64,000 nucleotides of DNA. Source: Escherichia phage 348Ecol098PP. The notes below the pieces were generated by a model. That model made no database searches, was not told the DNA's origin, and was given only the letters and a program-made list of their open reading frames with translations. This document shows, piece by piece, positions 1,698 through 6,656 of the stretch. How positions within the stretch are numbered: the first letter of the stretch is position 1; every line of letters begins with the position of its first letter. The translations under genes and the position numbers were made by a program. Where the stretch lies: the sequence record OR062947.1, one strand, 5' to 3'.

Positions 1698-2110
1698 TGA
1701 GATATAGCCTTCGTTGTTTTATTGCAGCTTTAGTTTTTGCCATCATTCCATTCATTTGGAACAGCCAGAATACTTACATGGAAACTAAAGTAATTCCTGT
1801 GGAGGTAGTGGAATTAATCTCAGGCCAATCTACAGGAAAATATTCTAAATTAGAATTTATTGCAGTCTATAAAGATGAGCAAGGACGAGTTTTTGACAGG
1901 CGTGTATCACCGTCGTTTTATACGCTTCTGAATAAAGGTGATACGATAGCTATAGAAATTCGTGAGATGGATATCAAACAAACTACTAAAGATAACCTGA
2001 TTTGGTTCTTTGGTACGGTGTTGTTGGTTTCTATCTGTATCACAGGTTTTATTACATGTATTGTATTTGGCGTTGCATATTTAATCGATGAAAGGAAAAA
2101 TAATGTTTAA
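1697..2110 (+). CDS. membrane protein (two hydrophobic segments)
   Basis: ORF track; hydrophobic N- and C-terminal helices; translational coupling. Confidence 0.65.
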   Translation: MRYSLRCFIAALVFAIIPFIWNSQNTYMETKVIPVEVVELISGQSTGKYSKLEFIAVYKDEQGRVFDRRVSPSFYTLLNKGDTIAIEIREMDIKQTTKDNLIWFFGTVLLVSICITGFITCIVFGVAYLIDERKNNV

Positions 2111-2366
2111 AGTGTACGGGTATGACTCTACTATTCATAAATGCATTTATTGTGATAATGCGAAACGATTGCTGACTGTTAAGAAACAGCCATTCGAATT
2201 CATTAATGTTATGCCAGAAAAAGGTGTGTTCGACGATGAGAAAATTACTGAGCTTCTTGTTAAGCTTGGACGCGAATCACAAGTTGGATTGACTATGCCT
2301 CAAGTGTTTGCTCCTGACGGAAGTCACATTGGTGGATTTGATCAACTGCGAGAATATTTTAAATGA
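2103..2366 (+). CDS. nrdC: glutaredoxin/thioredoxin NrdC
   Basis: MFKVYGYDS...CIYC active site; near-identical in length and sequence pattern to T4 NrdC; ATG at 2103 chosen over ORF-track start 2088. Confidence 0.9.
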   Translation: MFKVYGYDSTIHKCIYCDNAKRLLTVKKQPFEFINVMPEKGVFDDEKITELLVKLGRESQVGLTMPQVFAPDGSHIGGFDQLREYFK

Positions 2367-2578
2367 TGCTTGAAGGAACTGATTATATCCATGACTACCG
2401 TGGAAACGCGGTATATGTAGGTGATGAAGTTGCAGTTTACTATGGGTATGGAACTTTGATGACAGCCAAGGTTATTCAAATTAAAAATAATCGTGCTAAA
2501 CTCGAAGTTTATTATTCTAATGGCGAAAAGTCTATTTCTAAATGGAAATACGGCGATTGCATTGTTAAACTGGGGTAA
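2363..2578 (+). CDS. hypothetical protein
   Basis: ORF track; ATGA overlap with nrdC stop. Confidence 0.55.
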   Translation: MMLEGTDYIHDYRGNAVYVGDEVAVYYGYGTLMTAKVIQIKNNRAKLEVYYSNGEKSISKWKYGDCIVKLG

Positions 2579-2580
2579 AT

Positions 2581-2751
2581 ATGATTTACGATATTAGTGC
2601 AGCAAGAGCTCCATCAATGGTTACTATTCCTGTTGAAGAATTAGATCGTCTTCAGAAAATTGAAGAGCTTCTTTGGGAAATTGAATCTGATTTGCCATCT
2701 GGGCTAGAATCCTGGGTTGATTATGAAGAGCTCAATAAGCTCCGCGGTTAA
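2581..2751 (+). CDS. hypothetical small acidic protein (56 aa)
   Basis: ATG at 2581 to TAA at 2749-2751, manually translated; below ORF-track size cutoff. Confidence 0.4.
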   Translation: MIYDISAARAPSMVTIPVEELDRLQKIEELLWEIESDLPSGLESWVDYEELNKLRG

Positions 2752-2879
2752 ACCATGGTATTCGGCTCGATGGGAGACGGTCGAGCCAGACGTCGAAACA
2801 GTTTACAACGACGAAGAAACGTGTTATGATGAACCTTCAATAAATGAATTAATTGATATGGAAATGGGAAGAGATTATT

Positions 2880-3050
2880 ATGCAAGTTAAATTATTATAC
2901 CGTTTATTAAAAAATGGCAAGCATGATTGGTATTTGCTTATTAAAACCGATCCGAATTTTTTCTCTGGACAACCATTTACAGTTCGTCCTACTAAACGTC
3001 AGCTTCGCAAAGCTAAACGTTCTCATCGAGACTTTTATAACGTTTACTAA
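2880..3050 (+). CDS. hypothetical small basic protein
   Basis: ATG 2880 with GGGAAGAG RBS; in frame with ORF-track ORF 2853..3050. Confidence 0.45.
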   Translation: MQVKLLYRLLKNGKHDWYLLIKTDPNFFSGQPFTVRPTKRQLRKAKRSHRDFYNVY

Positions 3051-3052
3051 AT

Positions 3053-3060
3053 TATAAATA
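3053..3060 (+). promoter_or_regulatory. late promoter core TATAAATA upstream of gene 49
   Basis: exact TATAAATA 30 nt upstream of the gene 49 ATG. Confidence 0.6.
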
Positions 3061-3083
3061 CCCTTATCTATTTAAGGTAAGGG
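3061..3083 (+). promoter_or_regulatory. RNA hairpin (CCCTTA / TAAGGG) overlapping the gene 49 Shine-Dalgarno
   Basis: 6-bp inverted repeat 3061-3066 / 3078-3083, right arm contains the AAGG RBS; late promoter would start transcription inside the left arm. Confidence 0.5.
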
Positions 3084-3089
3084 TTTATC

Positions 3090-3563
3090 ATGTTATTATC
3101 AGGCGCAAAATATAAAGAAGAAAAACAAAAATTTTATGATGCACAGAATGGTAAGTGTCCTATTTGCCACCGTGAATTAGACCCTGATGTTCAAGGTAAC
3201 CATCTTGACCACGACCATGAATTAAACGGGCCAAAAGCAGGTAGAGTTCGTGGGTTACTCTGTAATCTGTGCAATGCAGCAGAAGGTCAAATGAAGCATA
3301 AGTTCAACCGTTCCGGTCTTAAAAGACGTGATGTCGACTACCTCGAATGGCTTGAAGCTCTTCTTGCTTATTTGAAACAAGATTATTCTGATAATAATAT
3401 CCATCCTAATTTTGTTCCAGACAAAACTAAAGAGTTCTCAAGACTAGGTAAAGAGGAAATGATGTCCGAGATGCTTCAAAGAGGATTTGAATATAATGAA
3501 TCTGATACCAAAACACAATTAATAGCTTCATTCAAAAAGCAGCTTAGAAAGAGTTTAAAATGA
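3090..3563 (+). CDS. 49: endonuclease VII (Holliday junction resolvase)
   Basis: 157 aa; MLL.G..YKEEKQKFYDAQNGKC.IC.REL... HLDHDHELNGPKAG.VRGLLCNLCNAAEG matches T4 gp49 recalled from memory. Confidence 0.92.
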   Translation: MLLSGAKYKEEKQKFYDAQNGKCPICHRELDPDVQGNHLDHDHELNGPKAGRVRGLLCNLCNAAEGQMKHKFNRSGLKRRDVDYLEWLEALLAYLKQDYSDNNIHPNFVPDKTKEFSRLGKEEMMSEMLQRGFEYNESDTKTQLIASFKKQLRKSLK

Positions 3564-4381
3564 ATGTAGTATATAAACTATCATTTATTAATAGAATTAA
3601 TGCTAAAACCCCACCATATTATTACATTGGAAGTAAAACCAATTGCACTTTTGATGGAACGAATATTATTGATAAAAATGGTAAATTTTATTATTCGTCT
3701 TCGTCATCTTCCGAATTTCAAAAAGCCTTATTGAAAGAAACGCCGAAAGTTGAAATATTATATTTTCAATTAGTCGGAGATGAACAAATAACTAGCATTG
3801 AAGCTGAATTTCAAAAGAATATAGAAAAAGATGTATGGAATAAAGAGTATTTTAATTTAGCATATGCTGATGGCAAATTTACGACATATGGTATTTCTCC
3901 TTCTAAAGAAACTAGAGAAAAACAATCAATAACCATGATTAAAAGAAATCGTAATAAAGGCAAAAATCATGGATTTTATGGAAAGCATCATACTAATTTA
4001 GCCAGAAAGAAAATATCAGAAGCTTCTAAAAAATACTGGAAAGAAAATCCGCATCGTGGATTTTCGCATACAAAGGAAGCTAAAATTAAAATTGGAATTT
4101 CATCTTCTATCAGGCATAAAGGAAGTGGAAATCCGATGTATGGTGTAAAACCTTGGAAAACTCCGAACGCAATTAAATCTGGTACTTGTATATTATGGTT
4201 AAAATACGCAGAAATTTTATATGATTATTTAGGTCCAGATTTTAAAAGTAAATCATCTATTTTTGCGGATTTAAACTTACCGAAATTTAGAATTGATAAT
4301 TTCATCAAAAGGTTTAAAATGGGTTGGAACCCATATTTAGACGAAGAATTTCAAAAGGATAAATTAGAATTATGTCTTTAG
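3560..4381 (+). CDS. freestanding homing endonuclease-like protein (GIY-YIG-like N-terminus, NUMOD-like repeats)
   Basis: VYKLSF...YYIGSKTN near N-terminus; repeated GKNHGFYGKHHT / GSGNPMYGVKPW modules; sits between 49 and nrdD. Confidence 0.6.
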   Translation: MNVVYKLSFINRINAKTPPYYYIGSKTNCTFDGTNIIDKNGKFYYSSSSSSEFQKALLKETPKVEILYFQLVGDEQITSIEAEFQKNIEKDVWNKEYFNLAYADGKFTTYGISPSKETREKQSITMIKRNRNKGKNHGFYGKHHTNLARKKISEASKKYWKENPHRGFSHTKEAKIKIGISSSIRHKGSGNPMYGVKPWKTPNAIKSGTCILWLKYAEILYDYLGPDFKSKSSIFADLNLPKFRIDNFIKRFKMGWNPYLDEEFQKDKLELCL

Positions 4382-6189
4382 AGAAAGATGTTTTAAATTT
4401 TATTTCAAATAAAGATAAAGAATTAAATACCGAAAACGCCAACAAAGATTCTCGTGTCTTTCCAACAAAAAGAGATTTAATGGCCGGTATTGTTTCTAAA
4501 CATATCGCTTGTCGTATTCTTCCAAGTCATATTGTAAATGCCCATAATGTTGGATTAATTCATTTTCATGATTTAGATTACAGTATATCATTGCCTTTTA
4601 CTAATTGCTGTTTAGTAGATTTAAAAGGAATGCTTGAGAATGGATTTAAATTAGGCAATGCTCAAATTGAAACGCCTAAATCGATTGGTGTTGCTACTGC
4701 AATTATGGCACAAATTACTGCACAAGTTGCTTCTCACCAGTATGGCGGAACTACATTTGCGAATGTAGATAAAGTACTTTCTCCTTATGTTAAACGCACA
4801 TATGCAAAACATATTGAGGATGCAGAAAAATGGCAAATCGCTGATGCGTTGAATTATGCTCAATCTAAAACAGAAAAAGATGTCTATGACGCATTTCAAG
4901 CTTATGAGTATGAAGTAAATACTCTCTTTAGTTCAAACGGACAAACGCCTTTTGTAACAATTACATTTGGTACGGGAACTGACTGGACTGAACGAATGAT
5001 TCAGAAAGCAATTTTGAAAAATCGTATTAAAGGTCTTGGTCGTGATGGGATAACTCCTATTTTCCCTAAGCTTGTTATGTTCGTTGAAGAAGGTGTTAAT
5101 CTTTATAAAGATGATCCGAACTATGATATTAAACAGCTTGCTCTAGAGTGCGCAAGCAAAAGAATGTATCCTGACATTATTTCGGTTAAGAATAATAAAG
5201 CTATTATCGGTTCTTCAGTTCCTGTTTCTCCAATGGGCTGCCGTAGTTTCTTGAGTGTATGGAAAGATTCGACTGGCAATGAAATTCTTGATGGACGTAA
5301 TAATCTTGGTGTTGTAACACTGAATCTTCCTCGTATCGCATTAGATTCTTATATTGGAACCCAGTTCAATGAACAGAAATTTGTTGAATTATTCAATGAA
5401 CGAATGGATTTATGTTTTGAAGCATTGATGTGCAGAATTAGTTCCTTAAAAGGAGTTAAAGCGACTGTTGCTCCTATTCTTTACCAAGAAGGTGCATTCG
5501 GGGTTCGTCTTAAACCTGATGACGATATAATTGAGTTATTTAAAAACGGTAGAAGTTCAGTGTCTTTGGGATACATTGGTATTCACGAATTGAATATTCT
5601 TGTCGGTCGTGATATTGGACAAGAAATTTTAACTAAAATGAATGCTCATCTTAAACAGTGGACTGAAAGAACCGGATTTGCTTTTAGTTTATATTCTACT
5701 CCTGCTGAAAACCTTTGTTATCGCTTCTGTAAACTTGATACAGAAAAATATGGAAGCGTAAAAGATGTTACCGATAAAGGTTGGTACACTAACAGTTTCC
5801 ACGTTTCAGTAGAAGAAAATATTACTCCGTTTGAAAAGATTTCTCGTGAAGCGCCGTATCATTTCATTGCGACAGGCGGTCACATTTCTTATGTTGAACT
5901 TCCAGATATGAAAAACAATTTAAAGGGACTTGAGGCTGTCTGGGATTATGCTGCACAACATTTAGATTATTTTGGTGTTAATATGCCAGTAGATAAATGT
6001 TTTACATGCGGAAGTACCCATGAAATGACTCCTACTGAAAACGGATTTGTTTGTTCAGTTTGCGGAGAAACTGATCCTAAAAAGATGAACACCATAAGAA
6101 GAACATGCGGTTATTTGGGAAATCCGAACGAACGCGGATTTAATCTCGGTAAAAATAAAGAAATCATGCATAGGGTTAAACACCAATGA
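4372..6189 (+). CDS. nrdD: anaerobic ribonucleoside-triphosphate reductase NrdD (uninterrupted, no intron)
   Basis: 605 aa continuous ORF; very high similarity to T4 NrdD recalled from memory; C-terminal glycyl-radical region RRTCGYLG. Confidence 0.95.
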   Translation: MSLEKDVLNFISNKDKELNTENANKDSRVFPTKRDLMAGIVSKHIACRILPSHIVNAHNVGLIHFHDLDYSISLPFTNCCLVDLKGMLENGFKLGNAQIETPKSIGVATAIMAQITAQVASHQYGGTTFANVDKVLSPYVKRTYAKHIEDAEKWQIADALNYAQSKTEKDVYDAFQAYEYEVNTLFSSNGQTPFVTITFGTGTDWTERMIQKAILKNRIKGLGRDGITPIFPKLVMFVEEGVNLYKDDPNYDIKQLALECASKRMYPDIISVKNNKAIIGSSVPVSPMGCRSFLSVWKDSTGNEILDGRNNLGVVTLNLPRIALDSYIGTQFNEQKFVELFNERMDLCFEALMCRISSLKGVKATVAPILYQEGAFGVRLKPDDDIIELFKNGRSSVSLGYIGIHELNILVGRDIGQEILTKMNAHLKQWTERTGFAFSLYSTPAENLCYRFCKLDTEKYGSVKDVTDKGWYTNSFHVSVEENITPFEKISREAPYHFIATGGHISYVELPDMKNNLKGLEAVWDYAAQHLDYFGVNMPVDKCFTCGSTHEMTPTENGFVCSVCGETDPKKMNTIRRTCGYLGNPNERGFNLGKNKEIMHRVKHQ

Positions 6190-6656
6190 ATTATGATAGA
6201 TTTTATCCTTGCGATTTTGTGAATGGCCCTGGTTGCAGGGTCGTTCTTTTCGTTACAGGTTGTTTGCATAAATGCGAAGGGTGTTATAATAAATCAACAT
6301 GGAATGCTAGAAATGGTATTCCATTCACCGGAGAGACACTAGAACAATTAATTGAATGTTTGAATAATGATTATATAGAAGGATTGACTATAACCGGAGG
6401 TGACCCTCTCTATCCTGACAACCGAGATGTTGTTCATTGCATCGTTCAAACAGTAAAAAATCTTTATCCCAATAAAAGCATTTGGTTGTGGACAGGATAT
6501 AAGTTTGAAGATATTAAACAACTAGAAATGCTTAAATATGTTGATGTTATTATTGATGGGAAGTATGAGAAAAATCTTCCGACTAAAAAGCTGTGGCGAG
6601 GATCAGATAATCAGCGACTTTGGTCAAATACCGATGGGGTGTGGAAACATGATTAA
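6186..6656 (+). CDS. nrdG: anaerobic RNR activating protein NrdG (radical SAM)
   Basis: 156 aa; Cys cluster CLHKCEGC; ATGA coupling to nrdD. Confidence 0.9.
   Translation: MNYDRFYPCDFVNGPGCRVVLFVTGCLHKCEGCYNKSTWNARNGIPFTGETLEQLIECLNNDYIEGLTITGGDPLYPDNRDVVHCIVQTVKNLYPNKSIWLWTGYKFEDIKQLEMLKYVDVIIDGKYEKNLPTKKLWRGSDNQRLWSNTDGVWKHD

Follow-up and report, generated by a model that had tools for sequence, protein, structure and literature searches.

A SegG-like free-standing homing endonuclease gene between gene 49 and nrdD of Escherichia phage 348Ecol098PP and its candidate homing cassette

The subject of this analysis is a homing endonuclease gene (HEG) located between gene 49 and nrdD in a stretch of 64,000 nucleotides (nt) from Escherichia phage 348Ecol098PP (OR062947.1). 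The whole stretch is called the window below. The gene is a member of the SegG clade that is already labelled "homing endonuclease" in GenBank. The reading favoured here, with a probability of about 0.72, is that it represents an active or recently active cassette for intronless homing, in which a SegG-type endonuclease would target the nrdD 5' DNA of phages without the gene. Phages with and without the HEG at the 49/nrdD junction are referred to as HEG+ and HEG-, respectively. Two features of the window carry the argument.

3560..4381, plus strand: SegG-like free-standing HEG, 273 amino acids (aa), with matches to SegG and PHROG 7504
4372..4595, plus strand: divergent nrdD 5' allele linked to the HEG, a presumed immunity or co-conversion tract, in which 24 of 75 codons differ from those of HEG-less phages

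The locus is present in about 742 records, and 49 of these carry the HEG. It is located at the 49/nrdD junction in every case, with a nucleotide identity of 96.5-99.9%. Its carriers include both Mosigvirus phages (AV112, JK42, FL18) and Tequatrovirus phages (fPS-90, PD112, MLP2, G8). Scans of IMG/VR and of metagenomes for further orthologs gave only three near-identical copies.

A comparison of ten intact copies with the window, segment by segment, reveals a footprint of gene conversion. Gene 49 falls into two classes, with either 97-98% or about 80% identity to the window. The endonuclease gene is at least 96.5% identical, and the first 224 nt of nrdD are at least 94.6% identical (94.6-100% across the two genera). 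The limits of the conserved segment are sharp: carriers of the Tequatrovirus type differ from the window at 85-93 positions in 3100-3559, of which 3536 is the last, compared with 13-36 in 3560-4595, and mismatches resume at 4617-4650. Between genera, the cassette 3560-4595 is 96-100% identical, versus about 80% for gene 49.

The 5' end of nrdD is also what separates carriers from non-carriers. In nt 1-224 the window is 57-80% identical to HEG-less phages, even the closest Mosigvirus relatives, and beyond this tract the identity returns to 94-99%. Every intact HEG copy is accompanied by the divergent allele. A comparison of nine HEG+ genomes with two HEG- ones gave 80 sites with fixed differences; 77 of them are in nrdD nt 1-225, and 0 in gene 49. 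A first, sequence-only reading of the window had suggested the nrdD region of relatives as the target. This clustering of all 77 fixed differences fits the suggestion, and the 5' end of nrdD may well be where the enzyme acts.

The tract and the HEG are similar in composition, with 29.5% and 28.4% guanine plus cytosine, compared with 36% in the flanks. At 95% identity or more, the tract is confined to HEG+ records and to OLB35, a deletion derivative described below. When a donor lineage was sought for the variant allele, the next-best matches reached about 75% identity (Klebsiella phages). The high identity of HEG and tract across genera, together with the foreign nature of the nrdD 5' allele, points to a transferable unit of approximately 1.04 kilobases (kb), corresponding to 3560-4595.

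The intact gene appears to be under purifying selection as a coding sequence. All ten full-length copies encode 273 aa, the mean ratio of nonsynonymous to synonymous polymorphism (pN/pS) is 0.15, and third codon positions account for 26 of the 40 variable sites. Altered copies also exist. In Pu-Krd-SF4 (PQ759884.1), the insertion of a single T at HEG nt ~733 (about 2233) causes a +1 frameshift that leaves a product of 245 aa. Pu-Krd-SF3 has the same alignment length of 823 nt and appears to carry the same form. Both look like early decay, or sequencing errors. In FL18 (PP400780.1, 2501-3992), the HEG is truncated at about residue 201, where it is joined to the final ~15 codons of nrdD, and nrdD has thus been deleted. 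FL18 also has a canonical Seg-type GIY-YIG HEG after this fusion (276 aa, with NUMOD3 and a weak match to the DNA-binding domain of I-TevI), at the nrdD/nrdG site, where T4 has mobC.

A further derivative is OLB35 (MH992122.1, 2480-2710; a record flagged UNVERIFIED), which has lost exactly 812 nt in frame and has retained the variant nrdD tract. There the variant nrdD allele is preceded by 22 nt from the start of the HEG (MNVVYKL), to which it is joined in frame. Finally, the metagenomic contig L010 (Logan SRR27536177, 2188-3300), from a distant T4-like phage, contains a frameshifted HEG ortholog with 55-66% identity. The order in this contig is gene 49, a remnant of 55 codons of the resident nrdD, the HEG ortholog with an ATGA overlap, and a complete nrdD. 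The two copies of the nrdD 5' end are 47% identical, and that of the complete gene is nearer to the variant allele of the window than the remnant is. This arrangement suggests an invasion by microhomology (ATGAA) inside nrdD, possibly near nt 165. Taken together, the frameshifted, truncated and deleted derivatives fit a cycle of HEG invasion, fixation, decay and loss.

The mechanism proposed for the spread of the cassette starts with a mixed infection. The enzyme would cut the HEG-less allele somewhere between the 49/nrdD junction and approximately nt 225 of nrdD. The junction in L010 hints at a cut near nrdD nt 165, although the target position is not regarded as established. The break would be resected and then repaired from the HEG-carrying genome, with crossovers in two conserved segments that flank the cassette:

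3460..3559, plus strand: conserved 3' end of gene 49, the left homology arm, which also holds a resident middle-promoter-like site and the Shine-Dalgarno region and ATG used by nrdD in HEG-less phages
4596..4636, plus strand: nearly invariant block of nrdD, the right-hand homology where the HEG+ and HEG- alleles rejoin

On the left they would lie within the final ~100 nt of gene 49, and on the right within the nrdD block that begins at nt 225; both stretches are conserved. What is copied would be the ~1.04-kb cassette 3560-4595, that is, the HEG along with the divergent nrdD 5' allele. The variant tract presumably cannot be cut, and would protect carriers from their own enzyme. Decay or loss of the element follows, as the derivatives described above show.

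The protein encoded by the HEG can be divided into three parts.

3560..3874, plus strand: N-terminal catalytic domain, GIY-YIG-like and of the SegG clade, aa 1-105
3896..4156, plus strand: linker with NUMOD3 modules, one full and two partial, aa 113-199 (Pfam NUMOD3, E 6e-7, two stretches)
4157..4378, plus strand: C-terminal module, presumed to be the sequence-specific DNA-binding end, aa 200-273, common to the relatives P0002 and P0004

The relationship with SegG is clear for the first part. BLASTP against T4 SegG gives 40% identity over 128 residues, confined to aa 1-126 (E 4e-27; tblastn 2e-17). Likewise, PHROG 7504, "homing endonuclease", matches aa 1-125 with an E value of 1e-33. An identical protein is named "homing endonuclease" in GenBank (phages AV112 and 55) and once "SegG", while NCBI calls one copy "NUMOD3 domain-containing DNA-binding protein".

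An AlphaFold2 model was built from 17 subfamily sequences. Its predicted local distance difference test (pLDDT) score exceeds 90 for aa 1-105 and is poor for the C-terminal half. The N-terminal domain of the model has the alpha/beta fold of a GIY-YIG catalytic domain, and its best structural match is I-TevI (structures 1LN0/1MK0). The motifs VY5KLSF and Y20YYIGSKTN, on which the sequence-only reading had based its GIY-YIG-like assignment, are present in this domain. In the model, V4-Y5-K6 lies on the strand formed by residues 2-8 and Y22-I23-G24 on the strand formed by residues 21-26, so that the GIY and YIG elements occupy the first two beta strands. Their spacing exceeds that of I-TevI by 6 residues.

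When the N-terminal 107 aa were used for an exhaustive HMMER search of 1.84 billion proteins, only 143 cluster representatives came up, and the domain was always at the N-terminus. The conservation alignment comprises 104 representatives and shows no variation at Y5, Y22, G24, Y44, S47 or N99. K26 and E81 each occur in 103 of the 104, and R12 in 90. Alignment to I-TevI (1LN0/1MK0) equates Y5 with Y6, Y22 with Y17, G24 with G19, E81 with E75 and N99 with N90. Judging from the model and these alignments, the N-terminal domain is probably a divergent GIY-YIG fold of the SegG clade that lacks an equivalent of the catalytic arginine of I-TevI.

One of the relatives is a paralog with a different C-terminal half. 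This protein, P0003, is encoded in an ENA contig (ERZ13617658, 4001-4822) and shares the catalytic domain (56% identity). Its gene belongs to another T4-like phage and lies between gp5 and a gene resembling gp5.1, close to where T4 has segC.

The DNA-binding half is less well defined. The repeats described earlier as G-x-x-[HN]-x-x-[YF]-G-K modules, and likened to NUMOD, are found at aa 134-142, 165-172 (partial) and 188-197 (partial). The likeness holds up, since the Pfam family NUMOD3 (PF07460) passes its cutoff in the two stretches with 29.7 versus 20.4 bits; 67 of the 104 family members also match it. In addition, profiles of the family match the I-TevI DNA-binding domain (1I3J) at the linker region (E 3e-5 to 2e-4). 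The C-terminal module is shared with few relatives and is modelled with low confidence. It shows a weak resemblance to the C-terminus of SegG (hhalign E 1e-4, probability 57%), with the pattern GW(N/I)P..D.E(F/Y).

The window segment itself is T4-like, and Mosigvirus phages, among them AV112, 55 and MM02, are its closest records. The order of genes is nrdC (2088..2366), small open reading frames (ORFs), gene 49, the HEG, nrdD and nrdG (6186..6656). The two neighbours of the HEG are:

3090..3563, plus strand: gene 49 (endonuclease VII), the upstream neighbour and counterpart of T4 gene 49, with Pfam PF02945 and PF09124
4372..6189, plus strand: nrdD, the downstream neighbour and presumed target gene, 605 aa, intronless, with Pfam NRDD (E 5e-171)

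The product of gene 49 matches the Pfam families Endonuclease_7 and Endonuc-dimeris (E 1e-31), and NrdD is continuous over its 605 residues (PF13597). In T4, nrdD is annotated as two joined pieces around an intron that encodes I-TevII. The sequence-only reading had drawn the same distinction between an intronless nrdD here and a split one in T4, and it was correct in this respect: an Rfam scan of 2900-6300 found no intron, nor anything else at the locus. A repeat search at the locus also found nothing. The gene can be called free-standing, as had been proposed, because it sits between two conserved genes and outside any intron detected by Rfam.

The insert measures exactly 812 nt by comparison with the empty site, which is found in T4 and in about 690 other phage records. 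At the empty site, for instance in T4, 308Ecol101PP and NHEP11, the stop codon of gene 49 overlaps the nrdD ATG by the 4-nt sequence ATGA. In the window, the HEG ATG (3560-3562) overlaps the gene 49 TGA (3561-3563) in an ATGA, and the HEG TAG (4379-4381) falls 10 nt inside nrdD, whose ATG is at 4372. The ORF and its overlap with the nrdD start are therefore real, as first described.

By its position, the HEG takes over the signals that nrdD has in phages with an empty site, namely the ATG, the Shine-Dalgarno region and the sequence upstream of them. The 3' end of gene 49 (3460..3559) is 96-100% identical in all phages compared, T4 included. It contains a pattern resembling a middle promoter (TGCTTCA at 3472-3478, a spacer of 13 nt, and TATAAT at 3492-3497), which is kept in T4 and all relatives. 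A scan for sigma-70 promoters found 13, not above the 8.8 +/- 3.2 found in shuffled sequences, and a scan for terminators found none. RNA folds around the two start codons are not significant (z -1.8 and +0.6). From these signals, the HEG seems to have no promoter of its own and would be read from the resident transcripts of gene 49 and nrdD. The 3' end of the HEG holds a Shine-Dalgarno-like AAGGA (4355-4359) and the nrdD ATG, and would thereby supply a new ribosome-binding site and start for nrdD.

The surroundings of gene 49 show another difference from the closest relatives. An ORF for pin, a protease inhibitor, is present between nrdC and gene 49 in AV112, phage 55 and MM02, and absent there in the window (2366-3090). 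The ORFs 2363..2578 and 2581..2751 are 94-97% identical to those of the Tequatrovirus fPS-90, and only 38-74% identical to those of the closest Mosigvirus relatives. The region 2400-2700 is thus a further mosaic patch, and no nuclease gene is evident beside it.

Several observations weigh against the homing cassette proposed here. Some concern the enzyme. The Pfam GIY-YIG model PF01541 has no match to the protein at E<=1, nor to any of the 104 family members; in searches of Pfam and NCBIfam with the protein, only NUMOD3 passed, and TIGR01453 stayed below its cutoff. The GIY-YIG assignment consequently rests on evidence of fold and homology. T4 SegG is likewise without any Pfam hit, so the absent PF01541 match says little, and indicates that the model misses the SegG clade. 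A Foldseek search with the whole model gave nothing significant. Furthermore, no member of the family has an arginine at the place of R27, which is essential in I-TevI: within columns 27-50 of the alignment, no column has arginine in 30% or more of the 104 sequences. Where I-TevI has the helix bearing R27, the model has short strands instead. The same Arg-less pattern, of the K26, R12, Y44, S47 type, is seen in T4 SegG. Profiles made from the subfamily alone gave no hit to a catalytic domain, either in the PDB or with hhalign against I-TevI. The sole link in sequence between the catalytic domain and I-TevI comes from a profile that includes canonical GIY-YIG members. Thus the GIY-YIG-like character claimed from the motifs stands as regards fold, homology and the conserved residues Y5, Y22, G24, E81 and N99, and fails as regards the Pfam match and the R27 equivalent; the profile comparison proposed as a check succeeded with the broader profile and failed with the narrower one.

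Other observations on the same side concern the footprint. In mosaic phages such as these, ordinary recombination can likewise create an island of high identity. The inheritance of the tract as one block could reflect too little homology for internal crossovers. A divergence of ~30% would by itself keep the tract together, so block inheritance does not on its own locate the target. A literature search found no paper on this gene, and no published cleavage or inheritance experiment.

An extended form of the proposal, put forward only tentatively, would account for the missing arginine. The SegG clade might be an Arg-less variant of the GIY-YIG fold, in which a beta-hairpin and an invariant Y-x-G-S loop take the place of the helix, and K26 or R12 supplies the charge. 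In addition, the gene might be mobile only together with an obligatory resistant nrdD allele, and L010 would mark the cut site near nt 165. If this were true, each homing event would rewrite approximately one third of the first 75 NrdD residues.

The gene may alternatively be a relic that no longer homes. It would be kept for the ribosome-binding site and start of nrdD, or for another use of the protein, and spread by ordinary homologous recombination. In its favour, the Shine-Dalgarno-like sequence and ATG of nrdD do lie inside the 3' end of the HEG, and embedded host signals are a known mechanism for the retention of seg and mob genes in T4 (PMC2988022). T-even genomes are also mosaic, with the patch at 2400-2700 showing the same cross-genus pattern, and the canonical catalytic arginine is absent. 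However, retention for such signals alone would not produce a pN/pS of 0.15 over the whole ORF, catalytic domain included, and the phage OLB35 is viable with the gene cleanly deleted in frame. Conservation extends to the catalytic Glu and Asn, and SegG, which is equally Arg-less, is listed as active (PMC2988022). Moreover, in each copy the limits of the identity island agree with those of the cassette to within tens of bases. A relic is considered unlikely on this evidence. More improbable still is a protein that acts mainly as a sequence-specific DNA-binding regulator, for instance of nrdD or nrdG expression, through its NUMOD3 modules, with a degenerate nuclease domain that does not cut. NUMOD3 is the only Pfam hit and gave one copy its NCBI name, and I-TevI is an autorepressor via its DNA-binding domain (PMC2988022). 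Yet the most conserved and best-folded part of the protein is the N-terminal domain of catalytic type rather than the NUMOD region. The HEG is missing from about 93% of close relatives, whose nrdD operon is the same and runs without it, and a regulator would leave the linked divergent nrdD allele unexplained.

The sequence-only reading had also implied a tie to the nrdD group I intron, and this tie finds no support. Such a tie could take the form of a helper endonuclease that cuts at or near the intron site, in collaborative or trans homing. The HEG does adjoin nrdD, which bears a mobile intron in T4, and mobE and the nrdB intron provide a documented case of trans homing by a free-standing enzyme (PMC2790892). 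Nevertheless, intronless phages of the HEG+ and HEG- types do not differ in sequence around nrdD nt 538/539, so an enzyme with its site there would also cleave the genome that encodes it. HEG+ phages also exist both without the intron, as in the window, and with it. An example is G8 (vB_EcoM_G8, 4851-5883), which has, besides the HEG, the group I intron of T4 nrdD with I-TevII; this intron lies at nt 538/539, and its 1033 nt are 99.9% identical to those of T4. Since G8 carries both, and the intron site is alike in HEG+ and HEG- phages, the HEG is independent of the nrdD intron. The helper function was rejected and is regarded as extremely improbable.

The homing cassette can also be compared with known systems. 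The closest is SegG of T4, which lies between genes 59 and 32. PMC2988022 (Table 1) lists it among the active free-standing GIY-YIG endonucleases, with gene 32, the neighbour on its downstream side, as the target. The two proteins have a homologous catalytic domain with the signature R12, YYIGSK, Y-x-[GS]-S-[SC], E and FN, and neither is matched by the Pfam GIY-YIG model. The topology is also shared: each gene is inserted immediately ahead of a conserved gene that runs in the same direction, brings no promoter, and has its target in that downstream gene (presumed so here). In contrast, the HEG of the window is at 49/nrdD and its product is 63 aa longer, owing to NUMOD3 modules between the catalytic domain and the C-terminal module. 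The identity of ~40% is confined to aa 1-126, and both target and activity are predictions here.

With I-TevI, the protein shares a design in two parts, a catalytic domain joined by a linker to a minor-groove helix of the NUMOD3 type. I-TevI differs in that it is encoded in an intron (that of td), cuts within 25 bp of its insertion site, has R27, and ends in a zinc finger and a helix-turn-helix, neither of which is detected in the HEG protein. For SegF, SegE and further seg genes of T4, intronless homing is accompanied by co-conversion of adjacent gene sequence and by localised marker exclusion (PMC2988022). The HEG resembles these genes in its sporadic presence between conserved genes and in a comparative footprint of the same kind. 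Their cleavage sites and inheritance have been measured, whereas here they are deduced from genome comparisons.

Finally, the nrdD-nrdG operon also hosts other selfish endonuclease genes, namely I-TevII in the nrdD intron, and MobC/SegH between nrdD and nrdG. These have other insertion sites (nt 538/539 and nrdD/nrdG), are different proteins and have independent distributions; neither is present in the window. The intron of G8 and T4 encodes a different protein of 258 aa, and the HEG described here is outside any intron.

The finding leaves the current understanding of homing endonucleases unchanged. It does indicate that the Pfam GIY-YIG model misses the whole SegG clade, and genes of this clade are consequently under-annotated. 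The 49/nrdD junction becomes the sixteenth kind of T-even homing endonuclease locus, beyond the classical T4 set. It provides a natural data set for the homing cycle, with intact copies under purifying selection in two genera, a sharply bounded island of ~1 kb, a linked candidate immunity allele in an enzyme-coding gene, and forms in decay or deletion. Such a cassette may be relevant to phage cocktails in which Mosigvirus and Tequatrovirus phages co-infect.

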